Positions 16,567 through 55,891 of a DNA stretch of 64,000 nucleotides are shown one piece after another; positions within the stretch are counted from its first letter, which is position 1, and every line of letters begins with the position of its first letter. The notes under the pieces are model-generated. The model saw only the letters and a list, made by a program, of their open reading frames with translations. It ran no database searches and was not told the DNA's origin. The position numbers and the translations under genes were made by a program. Source of the DNA: a virus; IMG/VR virus record IMGVR_UViG_3300031466_000074; one strand, given 5' to 3'.

Positions 16567-16886
16567 AAAGCACCTTCCTAACGACCAGAATTAACAATAA
16601 GAGAAAAAGAGCAGTTACTTATTTATTGTAACAAAATTTTCCCTTTAGGACAAGCAGGTAAAGCTAACCCCCAACTTTATTTCAACCAAGAAGAAAGAAA
16701 AAGACCAGCGTATGGAACATACGCTGGTCAAGAACTCACACCCGAACTATCACAGTCCGAATTTCTTGAGCAAGTTAAGCGCAAAGATTAAAAATACCCC
16801 ATACCGTGCATGATCGTACAAAAGCATGCGCGTCAAAAGAAAAAGACCCGTCACGCTACCGACAGGTCTCACAGGTCTCAAGTAAA

Positions 16887-16960
16887 AGCATCCGACTGGA
16901 TTCGAACCAGCGAATACGAGTTTTGCAGACTCGCCCCTTAAACCACTTGGGTACGGATGC
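16887..16960 (-). tRNA. tRNA-Cys(GCA)
   Basis: Cloverleaf; anticodon arm CGAGT-CTGCAAA-ACTCG; CCA not encoded. Confidence 0.92.
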
Positions 16961-16982
16961 ATATACAAACTAAAATACCAAA

Positions 16983-17186
16983 TCAAAGCGGATAGATCTT
17001 CGTGCCACGTTCAGTGTTCGCTGAGATAAGTCGCATCTTCATAACAGGACTGATATCCCATGTCTTTACACAAGTGTTACAAAACATATTCCCGAATCGA
17101 ACTGCACCACAGTCAGGACAAGTGGAATGCTCATGCGGATACGTTTTTGCACAACCAACAAAAGGACACGTACCTTCAAACCGCAC
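16983..17186 (-). CDS. small Cys/His-rich (zinc-binding) protein
   Basis: CPFVGC..HEH..CPDC..CNTC. Confidence 0.6.
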   Translation of the reverse strand: MRFEGTCPFVGCAKTYPHEHSTCPDCGAVRFGNMFCNTCVKTWDISPVMKMRLISANTERGTKIYPL

Positions 17187-17293
17187 TCTTTAATACCCCC
17201 AATGCACATGGATCGCAAGGAAGACAAACGACCACATTAATAGATAATCCACAAATCCAACCCTTACCTTCTCTCCACCAAAAGAGAAAAGTA

Positions 17294-17386
17294 TGGTGGA
17301 GCCGACAGGACTCGAACCTGCACAGCGGTGACGAACCGCCTTAAGCGATTTTCAAGACCGCCTCCTTACCATTCGGACACGGCTCC
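17294..17386 (-). tRNA. tRNA-Ser(UGA)
   Basis: Class II cloverleaf, loop CTTGAAA, CCA encoded, discriminator A. Confidence 0.88.
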
Positions 17387-17395
17387 GCAAAAGTA

Positions 17396-17491
17396 TGGCG
17401 GACAGTGAGGGACTCTAACCCCCCGAAGGATGCTCCTCACACCCCTTCTTGCTTTCAAGACGAGCGCATTCAACCACTCTGCCAACCATCC
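17396..17491 (-). tRNA. tRNA-Ser(UGA), atypical/degenerate
   Basis: Class II body, loop CTTGAAA; T-loop TTAGAGT and C-A mismatch in anticodon stem. Confidence 0.7.
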
Positions 17492-17541
17492 AACATTTGT
17501 TCATAGCCTACCATGTCAGTCTGATAAGCGCAAGACCCCAA

Positions 17542-17796
17542 TCAGTAATGGGTGACTACACCGGAAGGAAGTTGCGACTGATAGTCGTTAATGGAATCGA
17601 GTATTCGAACTTCCAAACGCTGGAGTTCATCCCAGTCTGGAAGTGACCGAATACTATACTTGAAGTTGTTTAATACCATATGGATCGCGCGGAGACGCTC
17701 CACCTTGACATGCGGCGGGTAACTCGTGCGGATAGTGGTATCGACTGCCCGACGTACCCCCTCAATCGCATAGTTGGTGCGCCGTCGAGAACGCAT
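17542..17796 (-). CDS. hypothetical protein
   Basis: RBS AAGGAGGAG. Confidence 0.6.
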   Translation of the reverse strand: MRSRRRTNYAIEGVRRAVDTTIRTSYPPHVKVERLRAIHMVLNNFKYSIRSLPDWDELQRLEVRILDSINDYQSQLPSGVVTHY

Positions 17797-17809
17797 AAAC
17801 TACTCCTCC

Positions 17810-18091
17810 TTACAAGAGCGTCTCCACACCGATGACCGTCTGCAAATTATGGTTGCCATTGGTCGTGACCAAGCCCGCCGGGGTAACCTTCTTGATGGTA
17901 ACCACATAGGATTTCCGACCACCATGATTTGTGTGCAAATGCAGACGAACTTCTTTCCCCATCAAAACCGGAGCCGCCGCAACGATTTCTTGTACCCCCA
18001 GCATCATGACCATATACCTCCAGTAGAGAGTCGCGAGAGATGTACGGCTTTCGATAAGGGTTTTATCTACCGCCGCCCCCGGTAACCCCAA
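17810..18091 (-). CDS. hypothetical protein (start may be internal)
   Basis: ORF in gene string; GGAGG before internal ATGs. Confidence 0.5.
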   Translation of the reverse strand: MGLPGAAVDKTLIESRTSLATLYWRYMVMMLGVQEIVAAAPVLMGKEVRLHLHTNHGGRKSYVVTIKKVTPAGLVTTNGNHNLQTVIGVETLL

Positions 18092-18252
18092 GGCTCCCGC
18101 ATTTCTCTACTAGTGTACCATTAAATTGAAGATTTTTCAAGAGTCGCATACTAGGAATCCCCTCAATTTTCAGGTAGTCGTTAAAAATTAACGAAGTGAG
18201 ATAAGGTGGAGAAGCTAAGACTACCATAAAGCAAGATACCCCTACTCCCGCT

Positions 18253-18627
18253 TTATGCTGAGGGGAGAGGGTAGGCGATCAAGGTCTTACCGCCAAACTC
18301 CAACTGCGCCACCATACAGGAAAGCTGAGTGATACCCAACTCTTGCCGACGGCGACGAACAGCCTTCAGCGGTACACCAAAGAGCTGAGCGATGTGTCTG
18401 TCCGGGACTACCTCAATATACCAAAGATGGCGCAACTGCTCCTTCGAAAGGGAGTCCAGCGACGGGAGCGTACCCGCCTCACGCAACTGCTGAAAATGCG
18501 AAAACAACGGTTTCCTCTCGATATACGCGCTCTGCAAATAGTCAAACTCCACATCGACGACCGGAAGAACTCCACGGGCGAACAAATCGTCCACCGCTTG
18601 TTTGAGCTTCTTATCAGACGTGACCAA
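18253..18627 (-). CDS. hypothetical protein with C-terminal HTH-like motif
   Basis: RBS GAGGTGG before TTG 18627; PDRHIAQLFGVPLKAVRRRR. Confidence 0.6.
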   Translation of the reverse strand: MVTSDKKLKQAVDDLFARGVLPVVDVEFDYLQSAYIERKPLFSHFQQLREAGTLPSLDSLSKEQLRHLWYIEVVPDRHIAQLFGVPLKAVRRRRQELGITQLSCMVAQLEFGGKTLIAYPLPSA

Positions 18628-18652
18628 GAAAACCACCTCAAAAAAAAAATAG

Positions 18653-18745
18653 TGGAGGATCGAGAGGGATTCGAACCCTCGGAGGAAGTCAAACTCCCCC
18701 AACGCATTAGAAACGCGCCGCCTTCAACCGCTCAGCCACCGATCC
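18653..18745 (-). tRNA. class II (Ser-type body) tRNA with UCU (Arg) anticodon
   Basis: GGATCGG/TCGATCC acceptor, Ser-type D arm, loop TTTCTAA, long variable arm, CCA encoded. Confidence 0.85.
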
Positions 18746-18772
18746 AGAGGAAAACCTTAGACGGAAACCCGT

Positions 18773-18979
18773 CTAAGGTTTGATATGGGTATGCAACCCA
18801 CTATTGACGCGAAGATTATTGGCAAAAGTTTGCGCTCCCGCCAAGGTGTCAAACTTAGCACGAATTTCCCACATCTTGAAAGAGAATGCGACCCCCGCTC
18901 GTGCCATTGACGCACAGTGTTCTACCAACTCTTTAGGATCACCCGTGACGATAACCGTAACCTGTGAATGCCGTGGCAT
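18773..18979 (-). CDS. hypothetical protein
   Basis: RBS AGGGGG. Confidence 0.55.
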   Translation of the reverse strand: MPRHSQVTVIVTGDPKELVEHCASMARAGVAFSFKMWEIRAKFDTLAGAQTFANNLRVNSGLHTHIKP

Positions 18980-18990
18980 ATCATTACCCC

Positions 18991-19236
18991 CTAATCCGAG
19001 ACATATGTTATAGAGAAAGATTCCGGTTGAATATAACTTGCACTTAGGTCAGTTGACCGCTGAAATGCCCGCGAAACCGCTGTGTAGACTTCCTTGTTCA
19101 AAGTCCGAGGAACCCACGGCATTGTATAATTATAATAATCAAAAACCGCAAGCTGTTCAGAATCGCATAGGGCAACTTGAAGTACAACGAAAAGCACTAG
19201 AGCTATAGCCTTGCGCTCAGAAACAGAGAACGTCAT
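18991..19236 (-). CDS. hypothetical protein
   Basis: ORF in gene string. Confidence 0.5.
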   Translation of the reverse strand: MTFSVSERKAIALVLFVVLQVALCDSEQLAVFDYYNYTMPWVPRTLNKEVYTAVSRAFQRSTDLSASYIQPESFSITYVSD

Positions 19237-19275
19237 TTGTTCCCTTCAATCCTTTTAACCGCAAGCTACGAGCTA

Positions 19276-19749
19276 TTATCCAACTCTGGAAAGCGTATTT
19301 ACATCCCAAACCTCCGTAACAGCGTAAGACTTATCCTGAGCATCCAGACGAACACTGCACTTGAAACCCGTACTTCCGTAATGTCGGCAGAGATAGTCCA
19401 AATTGTCCTCAAGATCCGCATACCTTGCCCGGAAGCCAGTACCCCCAAAATACATGGTACAGTCGGTGTTTCCACGCATATATGACGTTACAGCGGCGGG
19501 AGGATACCCCAAGTACAAACCAAGAATATCGTGCTTATAATCAAGCACAAGCTTGTCACTTCCCTTGGGTGAAACCCAATGCACTCCAACTTTCATGAAC
19601 GCTTCTTTGTCCCACTCAGCGCGAAACAATACCACCGATCTTCGATGAGGAAACGACAAAGTCAAATGCTCCGAGTGCCCTATTCTGCGAGCTTGTTTCT
19701 CCGGTACAATATCACAAGCCACCAATCCAAGTTTGAATAATTCCTGCAA
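19276..19749 (-). CDS. hypothetical protein
   Basis: RBS GAGGGG before TTG. Confidence 0.6.
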   Translation of the reverse strand: MQELFKLGLVACDIVPEKQARRIGHSEHLTLSFPHRRSVVLFRAEWDKEAFMKVGVHWVSPKGSDKLVLDYKHDILGLYLGYPPAAVTSYMRGNTDCTMYFGGTGFRARYADLEDNLDYLCRHYGSTGFKCSVRLDAQDKSYAVTEVWDVNTLSRVG

Positions 19750-19774
19750 AAATACCCCTCGTTTACTGTAGTTT

Positions 19775-19862
19775 TGGTGCGGTCGGAGGGAGTCGAACCC
19801 TCACGCCCTTGCGGACACTACCCCCTCGAGATAGCGCGTCTGCCTAATTCCGCCACGACCGC
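19775..19862 (-). tRNA. tRNA-Leu(GAG)
   Basis: Leu-type class II cloverleaf; loop TCGAGGG (C33 instead of U33). Confidence 0.85.
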
Positions 19863-19867
19863 ATGTT

Positions 19868-19986
19868 GGGTGGGAGGTTGCGGGAATCGAACCCGCCGAC
19901 CGATGCTACCACGCACCAGCCTAGACCACCAAGGAGGAATCGAACCTCCAGAGGGAGCTACCCTCCGCTCCAAGTAACCTCCCATC
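19868..19986 (-). ncRNA. tRNA-like RNA with two T-arms and no anticodon arm
   Basis: TGGGAGGTT/AACCTCCCA closing stem; GGAGG-TTCGATT-CCTCC and GCGGG-TTCGATT-CCCGC. Confidence 0.7.
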
Positions 19987-19991
19987 AAATA

Positions 19992-20078
19992 TGGTGCGTC
20001 CGGCAGGATTCGAACCTGCACGTCCGAAGACACTAGAGCCTAAATCTAGCGCGTCTGCCAAAATTCCGCCACGGACGC
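19992..20078 (-). tRNA. tRNA-Leu(UAG)
   Basis: CTAGA-TTTAGGC-TCTAG; CCA encoded. Confidence 0.93.
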
Positions 20079-20087
20079 AGGAAATTA

Positions 20088-20172
20088 TGGTGCGTCTAGA
20101 GGGAGTCGAACCCTCACGTCCGAAGACACACGATTTTGAGTCGTGCGCGTCTGCCAGTTCCGCCATAGACGC
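20088..20172 (-). tRNA. tRNA-Leu(CAA)
   Basis: CACGA-CTCAAAA-TCGTG; CCA encoded. Confidence 0.93.
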
Positions 20173-20185
20173 ATATTTAACTCAA

Positions 20186-20272
20186 TGGTGCGCCCGACAG
20201 GAATCGAACCTGTATGACCCAAAGTCTCGGGATTTTAAGTCCCGTGCGTCTCGCCACTTCCGCCACGGGCGC
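20186..20272 (-). tRNA. tRNA-Leu(UAA)
   Basis: CGGGA-CTTAAAA-TCCCG; CCA encoded. Confidence 0.93.
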
Positions 20273-20294
20273 AAAGATGGCGTAAAGTTAAGAA

Positions 20295-20369
20295 TGGTAC
20301 GTAGGGGATTCGAACCCCTGTCTCTCGGCGTCGCGCCACTCGTGTCCTAGACCACTAGACGAACGTACC
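20295..20369 (-). tRNA. Glu-type tRNA body with disrupted anticodon arm (pseudo-tRNA or mimic)
   Basis: Perfect acceptor, D and T arms; anticodon arm replaced by GGCG-CGA-CGCC. Confidence 0.65.
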
Positions 20370-20375
20370 ATGATA

Positions 20376-20452
20376 TGGTGACGTGGACGGGATTCGAACC
20401 CGTAAATGCCGCCTTGAAAGGGCGGTGTGTTAGACCGTTTCACCACCACGCC
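20376..20452 (-). tRNA. tRNA-Glu(UUC)
   Basis: CCGCC-CTTTCAA-GGCGG; CCA encoded. Confidence 0.93.
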
Positions 20453-20458
20453 ATGTTA

Positions 20459-20545
20459 TGGTGGGGAAGGTGAGATTCGAACTCACTTAGCCATTAGACA
20501 ACGGATTTACAGTCCGCCGCGACTCGCCTTCTTCGCCGCTTCCCC
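20459..20545 (-). tRNA. tRNA-Tyr(GUA)
   Basis: GCGGA-CTGTAAA-TCCGT, long variable arm; CCA encoded. Confidence 0.92.
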
Positions 20546-20606
20546 ATGCAAGACCTGTCGAAGTTTACAGCACCTTATTTAGTACCCGCCCTAGCGAGAT
20601 GTCTAT

Positions 20607-20635
20607 ACTATAACATGGCTACACAACGCCGTCAA
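20607..20635 (-). promoter_or_regulatory. sigmaA-type promoter of tRNA cluster
   Basis: TTGACG-17 bp-TATAGT with extended -10 TG. Confidence 0.8.
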
Positions 20636-21315
20636 CACATTTTTGAAACTTTTTTCTTATAGTTTTTCGCAAAGTCTAACTGGTTTGTTGGCAACACTTA
20701 AATAAGCCCTCGAAAAATGAACTTTTGTCTGAGAGCCTTAAGCTGAAGTCTTAATGAAATTTGAAAGTTATATAAGAATTTCAAGTCACCTAGATACTCA
20801 CCATTCTCAGTCATTCCATCCCCTCCGAACAAAAGAAAAGGCGTGATCAGCAACCTTCGCAGATTACTGATCACGCCATCTAACAAGCAAAGGATAAAGG
20901 AAATACCCCTCACCCTGCTTCGAAGCGTGTTATCCTACACGTAACCCCGAGTGCTGATCGCAGTGAACTTTTGTATTCAAACACCTTACGCTCCAGACGC
21001 TCCACGAGTTCTAAGCGCAACACCAAAAGGAGTCCGTAATAACCGGACTCCTTCAGAACTGAATACAAAAGTCCCCGCGTTACAGAGCTGAAAATGGACG
21101 CACGAACCCCTTGAGTAGACCCGCAAGAAGCTAAATCCACCGAGAACGGAGTTGATATTTGCATTTTCAGCACCCCAACACGCAAGATTTGATGAAATAT
21201 AAGAATATCTTAACACAAAAGTACTAAAGTGTCAAGAGAAGTACCCCATCCAAGGGATCAACGGAAATGTAGAGTCTGCATGCGCGTTCTTCGAATGAAC
21301 AACTACCATGTAAAT

Positions 21316-22245
21316 CTATCCAACCTTTAAGTCTTTATTCACAGAAAAATAAACCGTGATATGTTCGTAATCGTCGAGCGTACCTTGCACCCCTTCAATG
21401 GTTAAGAAAAACTCATCCTGTGATTTCGGTACCTCGTAAGCAACCCAACCAGAAAACGAATCGCCGGGATACAACACACTTTTTAGCGTATGGCTCGTCG
21501 GCTTAAATAAAGCCTGTGAGTAATGCTCGCCATTGGGTGAAACCAAACCATAAAACGGATTGTTTGGGAGAGTTATCGAGTCCATTCCAAGGGAAGACGA
21601 GTGCCAAGTGAACGTTGCGTTTATCAAAAGATACTCATAATAACCCCCAAACGAAGATTCCAAGTCCTCAGTGGTTAACCCCATATCACGCAGGAGAGGT
21701 TCGACTGCTTCTCCACGAACGACCTCATTCACACGAATAGTAAAGTTGTCTACGTTAGAACCAAAATAAGGCTTCACCGCAAAATCAACTTCTACACCCA
21801 AAGGAACTGGATTATCCTGAGAACCGTACCCCTTCAAATCCGTGCGAAGCTCAAAATCCTCCGTGAAGAAATCGACCTCGATAGGGGCGTACTCCTGCCT
21901 ATCGAAAGAAACGTTGGCAAAACCCCACAACCACGGATTGATCTCCGCCGCGACACGTGACGAGAACGATTGTAACGTCGGAATACCCTCCAAAGAACGC
22001 TGAATTCCATAAGGAAGCATGATGATCATCGTGTAATTCAGGGTCAAAACGACAAACATGAACACGTACGCCCAGCATACCGCACGGAAAAACCACTTAA
22101 GCACGGATGAAAGTCGCTTGAGCGAACTCTCCTTGGGAAGCGCCTCAGCACCTGTCAGATCGCAACCGCAGATGACACAATACCTTTCTGACTCATGATT
22201 CCGTGTCTTACAAAATGGACAAATATACTCTAACTCGACTTCCAA
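21316..22245 (-). CDS. zinc-ribbon + transmembrane + extracellular DUF4352-like domain protein
   Basis: CPFC...CVICG, hydrophobic helix, LYPGDSFSGWVAYEVPK. Confidence 0.65.
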   Translation of the reverse strand: MEVELEYICPFCKTRNHESERYCVICGCDLTGAEALPKESSLKRLSSVLKWFFRAVCWAYVFMFVVLTLNYTMIIMLPYGIQRSLEGIPTLQSFSSRVAAEINPWLWGFANVSFDRQEYAPIEVDFFTEDFELRTDLKGYGSQDNPVPLGVEVDFAVKPYFGSNVDNFTIRVNEVVRGEAVEPLLRDMGLTTEDLESSFGGYYEYLLINATFTWHSSSLGMDSITLPNNPFYGLVSPNGEHYSQALFKPTSHTLKSVLYPGDSFSGWVAYEVPKSQDEFFLTIEGVQGTLDDYEHITVYFSVNKDLKVG

Positions 22246-22893: not shown

Positions 22894-24186
22894 CTAGAGT
22901 AAAGACAATTGAAAGGAGTCCAAAACTGTTTCCCGTGTCCTACCCCATGATGAGTACATCCGTGCAAAAAGACTCGTACTCGAAATGACGTCGAGAAGCG
23001 ATTCTTTCGTATGTTGCTCTAACTTCCCATTACGAACCGCATAGCAAACCGGATCGATTTGATCCATACAAGTAACTGCAACGGAAAGATAAAACTTGAA
23101 GGACTCACCCTGGAGCTTATCTAAAAGCACATAAAAATTGAGCTGATCGAGATCCAAATACCCAAAACGCAAAGAACCTTGCCACTCATTTGGAAGATTC
23201 GTCGGATCATGAATACCCCGATACGGTTTCTCGGGAAGCTCCGTGTCCATCCTCCCTGCACCATGACGTGTAAGATAAGCTCGGGTCACATAACAAACTT
23301 CCATAATCACCCCCGTCTCATTAGACGCAACTGGATATTGAAGTGAACGCAACCAACCTTCTGAACCTGCGATAATCTTGAGAACATTGATCAACCCGGT
23401 TTTACTATGAGTAATATGCGGTGCAAACTCCTCCAAGTCCTGATCCAGCAACAAACCTTGAGCGCCTTCAAAAATAAGTGCATCGAAATGTTCGAAAAGC
23501 GCTTTGTCCGTCGTGATTAAGACATGATCAAGGAAGAACTGAACATCATCCAAAAAGTTATTGAACAAAAGATTGACGTCCAACGAAAGAAACTCATGAT
23601 GAAGTTTCGGATACCCCAACTCCGATAACCGCATGGGCATATAGTCATAGACCAAGAATTTCAACTTGGCGCGAAGCTCATTGTGATTCAACAGATCACG
23701 AACGCGCAAATGCACCTTGGTAAGCGGATGCTCATTCCGAACTACCGTTTCACTGATCCCCAAACCACAACTTCCATGCCGAGCATCACCCCTTGCTCGC
23801 TCAACTGCTTGATTTATCCATACATCCACTGGAGTAGTGACAAGAGAGTCAGGATGCACATAAATAAGTGGGATTTTTCCTTTAAGTTTCTTACAAAGAA
23901 CCCTATGCTCCTTCACGAACATTGTCGGATTCGAGATGAAAAACTGACTCAAATAGGTTGGTACCCCTTGCAACGTACCGGAACCGAAATGACTGAAGAC
24001 ATGCTCCAACCCTTCTGGAGTTACGACCGTATGTGCCGCTTGCGCTCCACCATTAAATCGGATGACCAACGGTTTACGTCCTTCATCAAGAGCTTGCGAA
24101 ACAAAATAGTCCGTCATCAAACCCTTACCTTCATCCCCAAAATTCGCTCCAATAACCACTCTAACTATCTTATCGAAATTCCCCAT
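22894..24186 (-). CDS. divergent adenylosuccinate synthetase (PurA)-like protein
   Basis: GANFGDEGKG, RFNGGAQAAHT, FEGAQGLLLD, YLTRHGAG; TTGR substrate loop absent. Confidence 0.85.
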   Translation of the reverse strand: MGNFDKIVRVVIGANFGDEGKGLMTDYFVSQALDEGRKPLVIRFNGGAQAAHTVVTPEGLEHVFSHFGSGTLQGVPTYLSQFFISNPTMFVKEHRVLCKKLKGKIPLIYVHPDSLVTTPVDVWINQAVERARGDARHGSCGLGISETVVRNEHPLTKVHLRVRDLLNHNELRAKLKFLVYDYMPMRLSELGYPKLHHEFLSLDVNLLFNNFLDDVQFFLDHVLITTDKALFEHFDALIFEGAQGLLLDQDLEEFAPHITHSKTGLINVLKIIAGSEGWLRSLQYPVASNETGVIMEVCYVTRAYLTRHGAGRMDTELPEKPYRGIHDPTNLPNEWQGSLRFGYLDLDQLNFYVLLDKLQGESFKFYLSVAVTCMDQIDPVCYAVRNGKLEQHTKESLLDVISSTSLFARMYSSWGRTRETVLDSFQLSLL

Positions 24187-26953: not shown

Positions 26954-28588
26954 TCAAGTGGTAGGTTTAGATGAATTAGACGGTAACCCAAACTCCAACA
27001 AAGTGTCGCCCACCGCACCAAGCAGTTGGTGACTCCATGTTTGCACCGCACTAACATTCGAATCAAAAGTCTTATTAAAGGAAGCCAAGTTCTCCAAAGT
27101 GGCAACCATCTCTTGCGTCGAAGCAGAACTTTGTTGTAAAGAGGAACTAAACTCCCCGAGGGAGCCTTCAATGACCTTAGTGTTGTCATGGATTTGTGTA
27201 AGATGTACCATCATATTTTGCGTCGAGCTGTCGACCCCATGCACAGCGTCCACTATGGAACTGAAGGACTCGTCGACAACCTCAACGCTCTTCCGAATCT
27301 GATCAAAGACCGCTTTACCCGATTCAAGAGCTTTCGTATTCTTCTCCGCACCCGCACAAAGGGTAACCGTCGTCTGCTGAACCGCTTTCGCCAGATCCGA
27401 AGACTGTTTCGAGAGCTTCCTTATCTCAGCGGCGATTACAGAAAAACCTTTCCCATGCTCCCCAGCGCGGGCAGACTCAATGCTGGCGTTAAGGGAAAGG
27501 ATATTCGTTGCTTGCGCCACCTGTTGGATCGCCTCATTGTGCTTGATGATTTGATTAAGCTTCTCGACCATTTCCCGATACCCCTCTTGAAAGGTGAGGG
27601 TGAACGCGTGGAAGGCTTTAAGATGTCCGATAAATGCGCTAAGTTGTTCCCGACCTTTATTCGAAAGCTCCGCCGTTGCATTGGAGTTCTCTGCGATGGA
27701 TGCCAACTCCTGTGTAAAATGATCCAATGACTGTACCGTTTGTTGCAGAGACGCATAAATGTCAGACACACTTGACGCTTGATGCTCAATCGCCTTTCCA
27801 ACTTCGCGGGATGCTACAACCAACCCATCCAAAGACTGTGACTGCATGTTACTCTGCTTACCTAAATCGAGCGCAAAAGCATTCAACCCTTTGATAGTGT
27901 CTACAATAACATCCCGCTGTGACGTAAGCTGATTCGACAAACGAACCGTCTCATCATAAATAGTATTGGCACTACGCTGGTAGTAACGATGCGCGAAAAC
28001 TGAGTCAAACAACAAGAACGAAACAAGGATGTAGAAGAAAATGTAGACCAGCGTAGAAACCAAGTCACCATCATTACCCCCTGGGATTCCTAAGAGCGCA
28101 TGAAGACCATTGGAGCGGTAGAGGAAGACAAGCAGGAGGATAGACGTGAGGAAGTTGGTCATCAAGTAAACTCGATATCGTCTATGCATAACTCCCATCA
28201 TAAGGATGCATAAAATCGAAAAATAGTCAATGACGCTGGGTAAGAATACAAAACGGAAAAGTAAAGTCAAAGAAACTGTAAAGAGTGCAACGTAAGGAAT
28301 CAAGTGAATTGAACGAGACTTACGCTTTGAGCCAAGATTCAACCAAAAAGCAAAAACAAACGCCAACAGAAAATCCAAGACAGTGAACGCTACCAAAAGA
28401 CCTTTAACATTCGACTGTGGGTAGGCATCTGTATAATAAAACAACACCAAATAGAGATTGAGAACCGCAAGTAAAGCCAGCCCGATAAGTAAAGAAATGC
28501 TTCGGGTCTGGAAGTCCAGTTGCTCCAAAGTCTCAATGTCCTTTACCTGCGAGTACCGACCAAACCACGTGCGTTCTCGAAGCCCCAC
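26954..28588 (-). CDS. methyl-accepting chemotaxis protein
   Basis: Multi-TM N-terminus; TNILSLNASIESARAGEHGKGFSVIAAEIRKLS signalling hairpin. Confidence 0.93.
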   Translation of the reverse strand: MGLRERTWFGRYSQVKDIETLEQLDFQTRSISLLIGLALLAVLNLYLVLFYYTDAYPQSNVKGLLVAFTVLDFLLAFVFAFWLNLGSKRKSRSIHLIPYVALFTVSLTLLFRFVFLPSVIDYFSILCILMMGVMHRRYRVYLMTNFLTSILLLVFLYRSNGLHALLGIPGGNDGDLVSTLVYIFFYILVSFLLFDSVFAHRYYQRSANTIYDETVRLSNQLTSQRDVIVDTIKGLNAFALDLGKQSNMQSQSLDGLVVASREVGKAIEHQASSVSDIYASLQQTVQSLDHFTQELASIAENSNATAELSNKGREQLSAFIGHLKAFHAFTLTFQEGYREMVEKLNQIIKHNEAIQQVAQATNILSLNASIESARAGEHGKGFSVIAAEIRKLSKQSSDLAKAVQQTTVTLCAGAEKNTKALESGKAVFDQIRKSVEVVDESFSSIVDAVHGVDSSTQNMMVHLTQIHDNTKVIEGSLGEFSSSLQQSSASTQEMVATLENLASFNKTFDSNVSAVQTWSHQLLGAVGDTLLEFGLPSNSSKPTT

Positions 28589-28790
28589 AACAAAACCTCC
28601 TTTACAAAACACAAAAATAAAGAATCAAAACCTAAACAAATTAACACCAGTTCCAACTCGAAAGAAAATAAAACATAAAAAGTGAGGAAAGTACAGAAAA
28701 GAGCGAAGAAATTATGTAGAATTTCCATTTCTCTGAAAACACAAAAGAGGGGTTCATGTGTCTGAACCCCTCTTGGATTATCAATAACCG

Positions 28791-31794: not shown

Positions 31795-31887
31795 TGGGGC
31801 GACTAGCGAGACTTGAACTCGCACTCGGGATTGAACCCCAAACCGGAGCCACAATCCGGCGTGTCTACCAATTCCACCATAGCCGCC
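31795..31887 (-). tRNA. tRNA-His(GUG) with Leu-type D arm and long variable arm
   Basis: G-1:C73, CCGGA-TTGTGGC-TCCGG, variable arm TTGGGG-TTCAA-TCCCGA. Confidence 0.85.
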
Positions 31888-54391: not shown

Positions 54392-55891
54392 CTAGACCTG
54401 CACCGCGTCGTAGATCGGATCATTCAGCGTCTTCATCATCGCTTCATACGGCGTCATACCGATGGCGTCCAGTACCGACTTGAAGACCGAAGGCGAATGA
54501 CCAGAAGCCATTTGAACCCCCGGAATCATCGAGTGGGTTTGAAACGTGTTGTGTCGCGAATTGACATTCCAGTACACGATATTCGGAAGCTCGAAACCGT
54601 GCTTGCGGAACTCCTCCGACACCACACTGTGGAACGTCCGGTAGTTGCCACCACTCGTCTGAGCATCAAACTGACCGTCCGTGATGATCACGACCGCCTT
54701 CGGCAAATCCTCTTGCGTGAGATTGTGCTGAAGCGCCGTTTGCAGAAGAAGCTCGAACGCCCTGAAGATATCCGTGTTATCCACGATAACCGGGAAGTCC
54801 GAGAGCTTGTCCTTCAACGTTTCACCTTGAATCGTGACCAAACGCGGTTCGCGGCTGAACGTCATGAAGGTATTGTGGAATACCCCCTTATTCCGTTCCG
54901 CGAAATACAGCGCCAGCCCGATGGACGTGTACAACGGCAAGCCATCGAACGTCAGCATAGAACCGGACGTGTCCGCCATGACCAAAACATTGAACTCGCC
55001 GTCCACGTAGTTCGGAAGGCTCCGCCACTGCGCTTCGATAGTCTCGTCCCAATGCGGAACAACAAGATTCATTGGTACATACCAGCTTGCATGCTCACGA
55101 ACAATCGACAACCCCGCATTCCGAAGCAGATCGTAAGGATACAGCGTACCCGCATTGATCTTCTTCTCGCCGGAAGCAACCGCTTCAAGATAAGACTTGA
55201 AGCGCTCCGAGTCACGGTTGCCGAACGCCTTGCGGTACCGCAACATCGCGCGGGAAGGAACGTGTTCATAATTGATTTCGCTCCAACGCCCTTGCGACAT
55301 CTTGACCTCCACCACGTCCATATAACGACAGAGCGCCGACAACATCTTGTCGTACCCCCGATAGGACAGTCCGAGACGACGCGCCAGACGGCGACCAACC
55401 CGCGATACCTTGGCGCGAGGTAACCACTTCGCAAGAAGTGAAACCGATTCGCCCTTGTCCATCGCACCCTTGTCGAGCTGAAGCTGGCTGGCGATCAGTT
55501 CAAACATATCACCTTCGAGCGCCGTATGCTCCAGCGACAACACGTCCTTCCACCGACCGTAGAACGGCAGAAGCGGAAGATTCTTGCGAAGAACATCCGG
55601 GTGGGCGTCCGCCAAGTAGCGGTAAATGGTCAACGGAACAGCCCGCTCACCCAAGCCTCCGCGAATGTTCCGAGCGTAGAACAACGCCTTCATAGCGTAG
55701 AGAGGATTCTCTTCAAACGCCAATCGGAACTGCGTGACGATGTCCTCCGACGAACGTTCGCGAAGCGCACCAGCCGTTGCGTAAAAGTCCAACAGGCGGG
55801 AACCCGTCGACTTAAGCGCATAGGCTCCGTTGTCCGTATAGGTGGAGTTGTCCTGCACCTGACGAACCGCGTTGATGAAGTTTTGCGACAT
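54392..55891 (-). CDS. TROVE/Ro60-like helical domain + vWA protein (DUF2828-like)
   Basis: TDNGA..LKSTG..LLDF, ARNIRGGLGER, YGRWKD, LLAKWLPR, W..INYEHVPSRAM; MIDAS DTSGSM, ITDGQFD, VYWNV. Confidence 0.85.
   Translation of the reverse strand: MSQNFINAVRQVQDNSTYTDNGAYALKSTGSRLLDFYATAGALRERSSEDIVTQFRLAFEENPLYAMKALFYARNIRGGLGERAVPLTIYRYLADAHPDVLRKNLPLLPFYGRWKDVLSLEHTALEGDMFELIASQLQLDKGAMDKGESVSLLAKWLPRAKVSRVGRRLARRLGLSYRGYDKMLSALCRYMDVVEVKMSQGRWSEINYEHVPSRAMLRYRKAFGNRDSERFKSYLEAVASGEKKINAGTLYPYDLLRNAGLSIVREHASWYVPMNLVVPHWDETIEAQWRSLPNYVDGEFNVLVMADTSGSMLTFDGLPLYTSIGLALYFAERNKGVFHNTFMTFSREPRLVTIQGETLKDKLSDFPVIVDNTDIFRAFELLLQTALQHNLTQEDLPKAVVIITDGQFDAQTSGGNYRTFHSVVSEEFRKHGFELPNIVYWNVNSRHNTFQTHSMIPGVQMASGHSPSVFKSVLDAIGMTPYEAMMKTLNDPIYDAVQV

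Follow-up and report, generated by a model that had tools for sequence, protein, structure and literature searches.

A serine-type tRNA with a UCU anticodon in a phage-like element probably reflects erosion of an ordinary tRNA-Ser(GCU) in one strain

Natural anticodon variants of tRNA-Ser are a classic route to mistranslation, and to our knowledge microbial genomes hardly ever contain them. The invertebrate mitochondrial tRNA-Ser(UCU) reads AGN codons as serine (genetic code tables 5, 9, 14, and 21); in these mitochondrial systems the AGR codons have undergone true reassignment, with an anticodon that is fixed throughout the lineage. In yeast, an engineered tRNA-Ser (UCU, G26A) inserts serine, mainly at AGA (PMC8473984), and human tRNA-Ser-AGA-2-3 G35A is a mistranslating anticodon variant of tRNA-Ser (PMC12993449). 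The allo-tRNAs, which have a long variable arm, G73 or U73, and non-serine anticodons that include readers of AGA/AGG, are predicted to be charged with serine, and Mukai et al. 2017 counted U73 as SerRS compatible in this group (PMC5389517). Serine identity does not depend on the anticodon, with G1-C72 and G2-C71 conserved in bacterial tRNA-Ser and with G73 only a moderate determinant in the Escherichia coli tRNA-Ser; bacterial arginine identity depends chiefly on A20, plus C35, U/G36, and A/G73 (PMC9976931). The premise of the original prediction for the locus described here, namely that SerRS ignores the anticodon and ArgRS needs A20, agrees with the latter work.

The window, by which we mean the whole 64,000-nucleotide stretch of DNA that was analyzed, has 45 to 50% G+C content and carries almost all of its genes on the minus strand. 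ARAGORN identified 18 tRNA genes and Rfam 18 tRNAs and a tmRNA, all of them on that strand. One 93-nt tRNA with anticodon tct was labeled tRNA-Arg by ARAGORN and matched Rfam RF00005 with 48 bits (gathering score, 29; E = 3.5e-7). This gene and the features that adjoin it are:

18653..18745, minus strand: class II tRNA with a serine-type body, UCU anticodon, U73, and encoded CCA (ARAGORN and Rfam RF00005)
18709..18711, minus strand: its anticodon, U34 C35 U36, in which base 18711 (A on the plus strand) is U34
18640..18649, minus strand: T10 run directly after the CCA, with a length that varies among strains (+1, -2; indels at 18639/18640)
18753..18780, minus strand: 12-bp hairpin immediately upstream of the tRNA; its T tail is weak (read from the sequence)

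The tRNA gene at 18653-18745 is genuine. In the ARAGORN drawing and the sequence, its acceptor stem has 7 bp (G1-C72, G2-C71, A3-U70 ... G7.U66), the T stem has 5 bp and a UUCGAAU loop, and both ARAGORN and the Rfam alignment give a 7/5 acceptor/T branch. The D stem has 3 bp, including C11-G24, in a D arm that reads GCU-GAGCGGUUGAA-GGC, and the D loop, AGCGGUUGA, places U at position 20, where the ArgRS determinant would be A20. A 5-bp anticodon stem closes the loop U32 U33 U34 C35 U36 A37 A38, and the variable arm is long and paired (7-bp stem, 5-nt loop, in the ARAGORN drawing). The original prediction had described an intact 7/5 cloverleaf with encoded CCA, a serine-type D loop with U20, a long paired variable arm, and a UU-UCU-AA loop, and all of these were recovered: the cloverleaf in agreement between the ARAGORN drawing and RF00005, the D loop by reading the sequence (the same D-arm motif occurs in at least 119 phage tRNA-Ser genes), the arm as the 7-bp stem of the drawing, and the loop in both the sequence and the ARAGORN call. 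It had also judged a slipped register that exposes CUA to be the weaker one, which is borne out by fewer pairs and a less favorable energy (in the full cloverleaf, 4 pairs and -29.7 kcal/mol, whereas the canonical register has 5 pairs and -31.3 kcal/mol); neither ARAGORN nor Rfam picked the CUA register.

The serine features G1-C72, G2-C71, and C11-G24 (PMC9976931) are all present in this tRNA. Its anticodon is not a serine anticodon in the window, although it is GCU in the related strains described below, and its discriminator is U73, in the window and in the relative L001, rather than the usual G73 of tRNA-Ser, a base that the original prediction did not mention. From the arginine set, C35 and U36 (within U/G36) are present, and both bases already occur in the GCU form; the class I body, short variable loop, and A/G73 of tRNA-Arg are absent. 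Because the serine elements other than G73 are there and only C35 and U36 of the arginine elements, the tRNA is probably charged with serine, and charging with serine rather than arginine is the most likely biochemical outcome. Among the matches listed in IMG/VR, 81 distinct phage tRNA-Ser sequences share the D arm, of which 75 carry G73 but none U73; because of this atypical U73, serine charging of even the GCU form is a prediction only.

The T10 run is followed by a ribosome-binding site, GAGGTGG, and by the downstream gene (18253-18627), which starts with TTG. Judging from its sequence, the hairpin at 18753-18780 could act as a weak terminator or as a processing hairpin for the unit upstream, although our terminator scan did not flag it; since it sits directly upstream of the tRNA, it may affect how strongly the tRNA is transcribed. 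The promoter and terminator scan of the window gave a number of sites not above that of shuffled sequences, and upstream of the tRNA only a weak promoter-like site was found (18844-18815). No RNA run was among the sequencing runs listed as containing the stretch.

The tRNA clusters of the window include several other unusual tRNAs. Copy a of a tRNA-Ser(UGA) (17294-17386, minus strand) has A73, and its anticodon and D stems have 6 and 3 bp, respectively; because A73 is a discriminator of the Leu/Tyr type, this copy may or may not be charged with serine. A class II tRNA at 31795-31886 (minus strand) combines a long variable arm and Leu-like D arm with a GUG anticodon, G-1, and C73 (the HisRS identity set), and upstream of it, to 31905, there is a tandem duplication of the 9-mer GCGGCTATG. 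Two tRNA-like RNAs in the tRNA operon (19872-19966 and 20295-20369, both minus strand) lack a normal anticodon arm; one has two T arms, the other has a Glu-like body and, at its center, a hairpin of 17 nt, and both are also found in L001. PHROGs and Pfam scans of the window proteins did not distinguish a phage from a plasmid; these proteins include a protein with a methyl-accepting chemotaxis signaling domain (26954-28612), an adenylosuccinate-synthetase-like protein (22894-24186), and a DUF2828/DUF7788 protein (54392-55891), all on the minus strand.

Public sequencing runs from about 13 studies contain the stretch, and contigs of four of these runs (X6, X7, X9, and X14) were compared with the window over 16800-20700. 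Samples X7, X9, and X14 came from compost and bioreactors, were dated 2016 to 2025, and belonged to different studies; their strains differ from the window by 1 to 2%, with private differences in each. Within the tRNA, a single base separates all three from the window, 18711 A>C on the plus strand, so that position 34 is G and the anticodon reads GCU. When JGI metagenome contigs were scanned for the tRNA with any anticodon allowed, one contig was found, L001, which is 99.46% identical over 4071 bases to window positions 17717-21782. Its tRNA has the anticodon GCT (ARAGORN, tRNA-Ser(gct)), and position 34 is again the sole difference inside the tRNA. X6, by contrast, belongs to the strain of the window: one contig over 18096-19868, at a depth of 6, has no differences in 1773 bases and reads A at 18711. 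Runs X1 to X5 contained 98 to 100% of the sampled words. Among the strains compared, the UCU allele was thus confined to that of the window (runs X1 to X6), and its occurrence in several runs indicates that the lineage is viable.

These comparisons bear directly on whether the base is genuine. A sequencing or assembly error in the source of the window would account for a single-base departure from all relatives, but such an error is exceedingly improbable given that the separately assembled X6 contig agrees with the window at that depth and over that length, and that X1 to X5 hold nearly all sampled words. The U of the UCU is therefore a real base. The original prediction had named GCU in relatives, with the UCU a single-genome mutation or a sequencing error, as a finding that would speak against it, and GCU is what X7, X9, X14, and L001 carry. 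With four mutually distinct strains on one side and one lineage on the other, and with GCU the canonical state, G34 appears to be ancestral and U34 derived. The UCU most probably arose by one recent point substitution, G34U, in a single lineage, in an otherwise ordinary tRNA-Ser(GCU) that would read AGU/AGC.

The nearest phage tRNAs are tRNA-Ser(GCU) and are at most 78% identical; in the phage collection a Thermus phage tRNA-Ser was the only match (74% identity), and the tRNA had no match in the plasmid collection. The product of the neighboring ORF at 19276-19749 has a homolog, P0002, that is 65% identical. Searches of IMG/VR with the exact tRNA pattern, two neighboring proteins, and a two-sequence profile found no relatives of the element, and no relative of the neighboring protein was found in GTDB genomes. 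A serine D arm followed by the UUUCUAA loop had no match in 185,579 prokaryote species (one genome each), a scan for which IMG/VR, and not a parallel GCU-form search of the same collection, served as the control. In IMG/VR the same pattern with position 34 open matched at least 119 contigs, and the matches listed had G in 92, A in 27, and neither U nor C. The 27 of 119 listed matches with ACU (A34) rather than GCU fall into several distinct sequence groups (L004, L008, L011, L022, and others). Given their absence from the genome scan and from the listed IMG/VR matches, UCU variants are normally not kept; such variants are evidently removed fast elsewhere, and the present one is a rare snapshot and not a new class.

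The position-34 change is accompanied by alterations in two other tRNAs of the window:

19775..19862, minus strand: tRNA-Leu(GAG), with C33 in the window strain only (base 19828; G>A at 19828 in X7, X9, X14, and L001)
17396..17491, minus strand: tRNA-Ser(UGA) copy b, eroded in the window strain (ARAGORN and strain differences)

The tRNA-Leu(GAG) has the universal U33 in X7, X9, X14, and L001 versus C33 in the window. In the window, copy b of tRNA-Ser(UGA) shows a C.A mismatch in its anticodon stem, lacks C56 from its T loop (UUAGAGU), and has two wobble pairs in its acceptor stem, whereas it is canonical in X7 and X14 (UUCGAAU, Watson-Crick pairs) and intermediate in X9, as rebuilt from the differences listed, which may lack further ones. 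It is the most variable tRNA among the strains and the worst damaged in the window. Since the window holds the noncanonical state at serine position 34, at position 33 of tRNA-Leu(GAG), and in tRNA-Ser(UGA) copy b, derived decay on this branch is indicated, as redundant tRNA genes under erosion in this lineage would show.

Codon usage was counted in 47 long minus-strand ORFs of the window (14,430 codons). AGA was the rarest arginine codon (45 codons, 3.1 per 1000, 6% of arginine), AGG occurred at 4.7 per 1000, and AGU plus AGC, the codons of the ancestral GCU form, at 17.9 per 1000. With AGA this scarce, local recoding of AGA as serine in the element, a use that the original prediction had put forward, is not plausible, and the mutant tRNA would do little harm to the proteins of the element itself. 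A second part of that prediction, that serine could be inserted at AGA, survives as far as charging is concerned, since the body is of the serine type and lacks A20; the purposes attached to it (targeted mistranslation, recoding, or a decoy) are undercut by the GCU relatives.

We consider it most likely, with a probability of roughly 0.75, that a dispensable phage gene for tRNA-Ser(GCU) is eroding nonadaptively in this strain and has not evolved into a recoding device. An ordinary element-encoded tRNA-Ser(GCU) would have taken a single G34-to-U change in one strain, yielding UCU. Since recognition by bacterial SerRS rests on the long variable arm and acceptor stem and not on the anticodon, the mutant would probably still be a SerRS substrate, possibly a weak one owing to U73, and would not be expected to serve ArgRS. 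If transcribed, it would have lost the reading of AGY and might put some serine in at AGA, perhaps also at AGG. Such a change would presumably be tolerated, and may be neutral, with AGA rare in the element and with the host supplying both tRNA-Ser(GCU) and tRNA-Arg(UCU).

Other readings give the UCU anticodon a function. It is improbable that U34 was kept in an evolved serine-inserting AGA decoder, for mistranslation of AGA-rich host genes or for local recoding. Such a decoder would draw on a serine body without A20 whose anticodon SerRS ignores (PMC9976931), has counterparts in the engineered tRNA-Ser(UCU) that puts serine at AGA in yeast (PMC8473984) and in the known 9/3 allo-tRNAs with AGA/AGG anticodons (PMC5389517), and would fit an allele found in several runs of one strain. 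However, GCU is kept in four strains that are about 99.5% identical, leaving codon reassignment neither time nor room; the element uses AGA less than any other arginine codon, and the damaging changes in two further tRNAs point to decay. We regard as similarly improbable that U34 is an adaptive gain by one mutation that, with C33 of tRNA-Leu(GAG), would corrupt translation of rare codons in the host or defeat a tRNA-directed defense; were this so, the AGA-poor genes of the element itself would be spared.

The two loop changes (G34U in tRNA-Ser and U33C in tRNA-Leu(GAG)) could also have been selected to escape or decoy a host tRNA-targeting nuclease, as phage tRNAs have been proposed to evade anticodon nucleases by loop mutations (PMC10264068). 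In the 4-kb comparison with L001, anticodon loops, which make up 63 of the 4066 bases, do contain both of the tRNA differences (2 of the 17 SNPs; P of about 0.03, a weak, post hoc statistic), and this clustering may be a hint that the loops are under selection and not decaying at random. Nevertheless, an escape variant would have to retain AGY decoding, which G34U abolishes, the third altered tRNA changed in its stem and T loop and not in the anticodon loop, and this analysis identified no nuclease specific for tRNA-Ser(GCU) or tRNA-Arg(UCU), all of which makes the nuclease reading very unlikely. Even when pooled, the adaptive readings are unlikely. Finally, re-assignment of a class II tRNA to arginine, with ArgRS charging through C35/U36 and correct decoding of AGA, is highly improbable: C35 and U36 are ArgRS determinants, and the class II GUG tRNA of the window (G-1, C73) looks re-assigned to histidine, so that identity switching on long-arm bodies may occur, but position 20 is U and not A20, position 73 is U and not A/G73, and no identity elements changed along with position 34, which alone differs from the GCU form of the relatives.

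This locus is a tRNA-Ser anticodon variant from the wild with unmutated sister strains in public data, and it offers a natural test, on a small scale, of how long a tRNA with the potential to mistranslate persists in a mobile element. It also shows why an odd tRNA in a large phage tRNA array is best compared with sister strains before it is called a recoding device.

Set against described systems, the tRNA resembles bacterial and phage tRNA-Ser(GCU) in its 7/5 branch, G1-C72, G2-C71, C11-G24, D arm (GAGCGGUUGAAGGC), long paired arm, and A37-A38, and its own relatives are GCU; it departs from them by U34 in the window strain and by U73 in place of G73 in all strains. It does not qualify as a tRNA-Arg, since its body is class II and both A20 and A/G73 are absent. 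The long variable arm, U73, and non-serine anticodon are all allo-tRNA-like features, but the defining 8/4 or 9/3 branch is absent (7/5 here), and the non-serine anticodon is not conserved in relatives. Like the mistranslating tRNA-Ser variants, it has one changed anticodon base, a synthetase that ignores the anticodon, and serine expected at a non-serine codon; unlike the engineered ones, it is natural, it resides in a bacterial phage-like element, its mistranslation is only predicted, and U73 may lower its charging. With the mitochondrial tRNA-Ser(UCU) it shares a UCU anticodon on a body predicted to accept serine, but here a single strain has the change, and AGA is a rare arginine codon.
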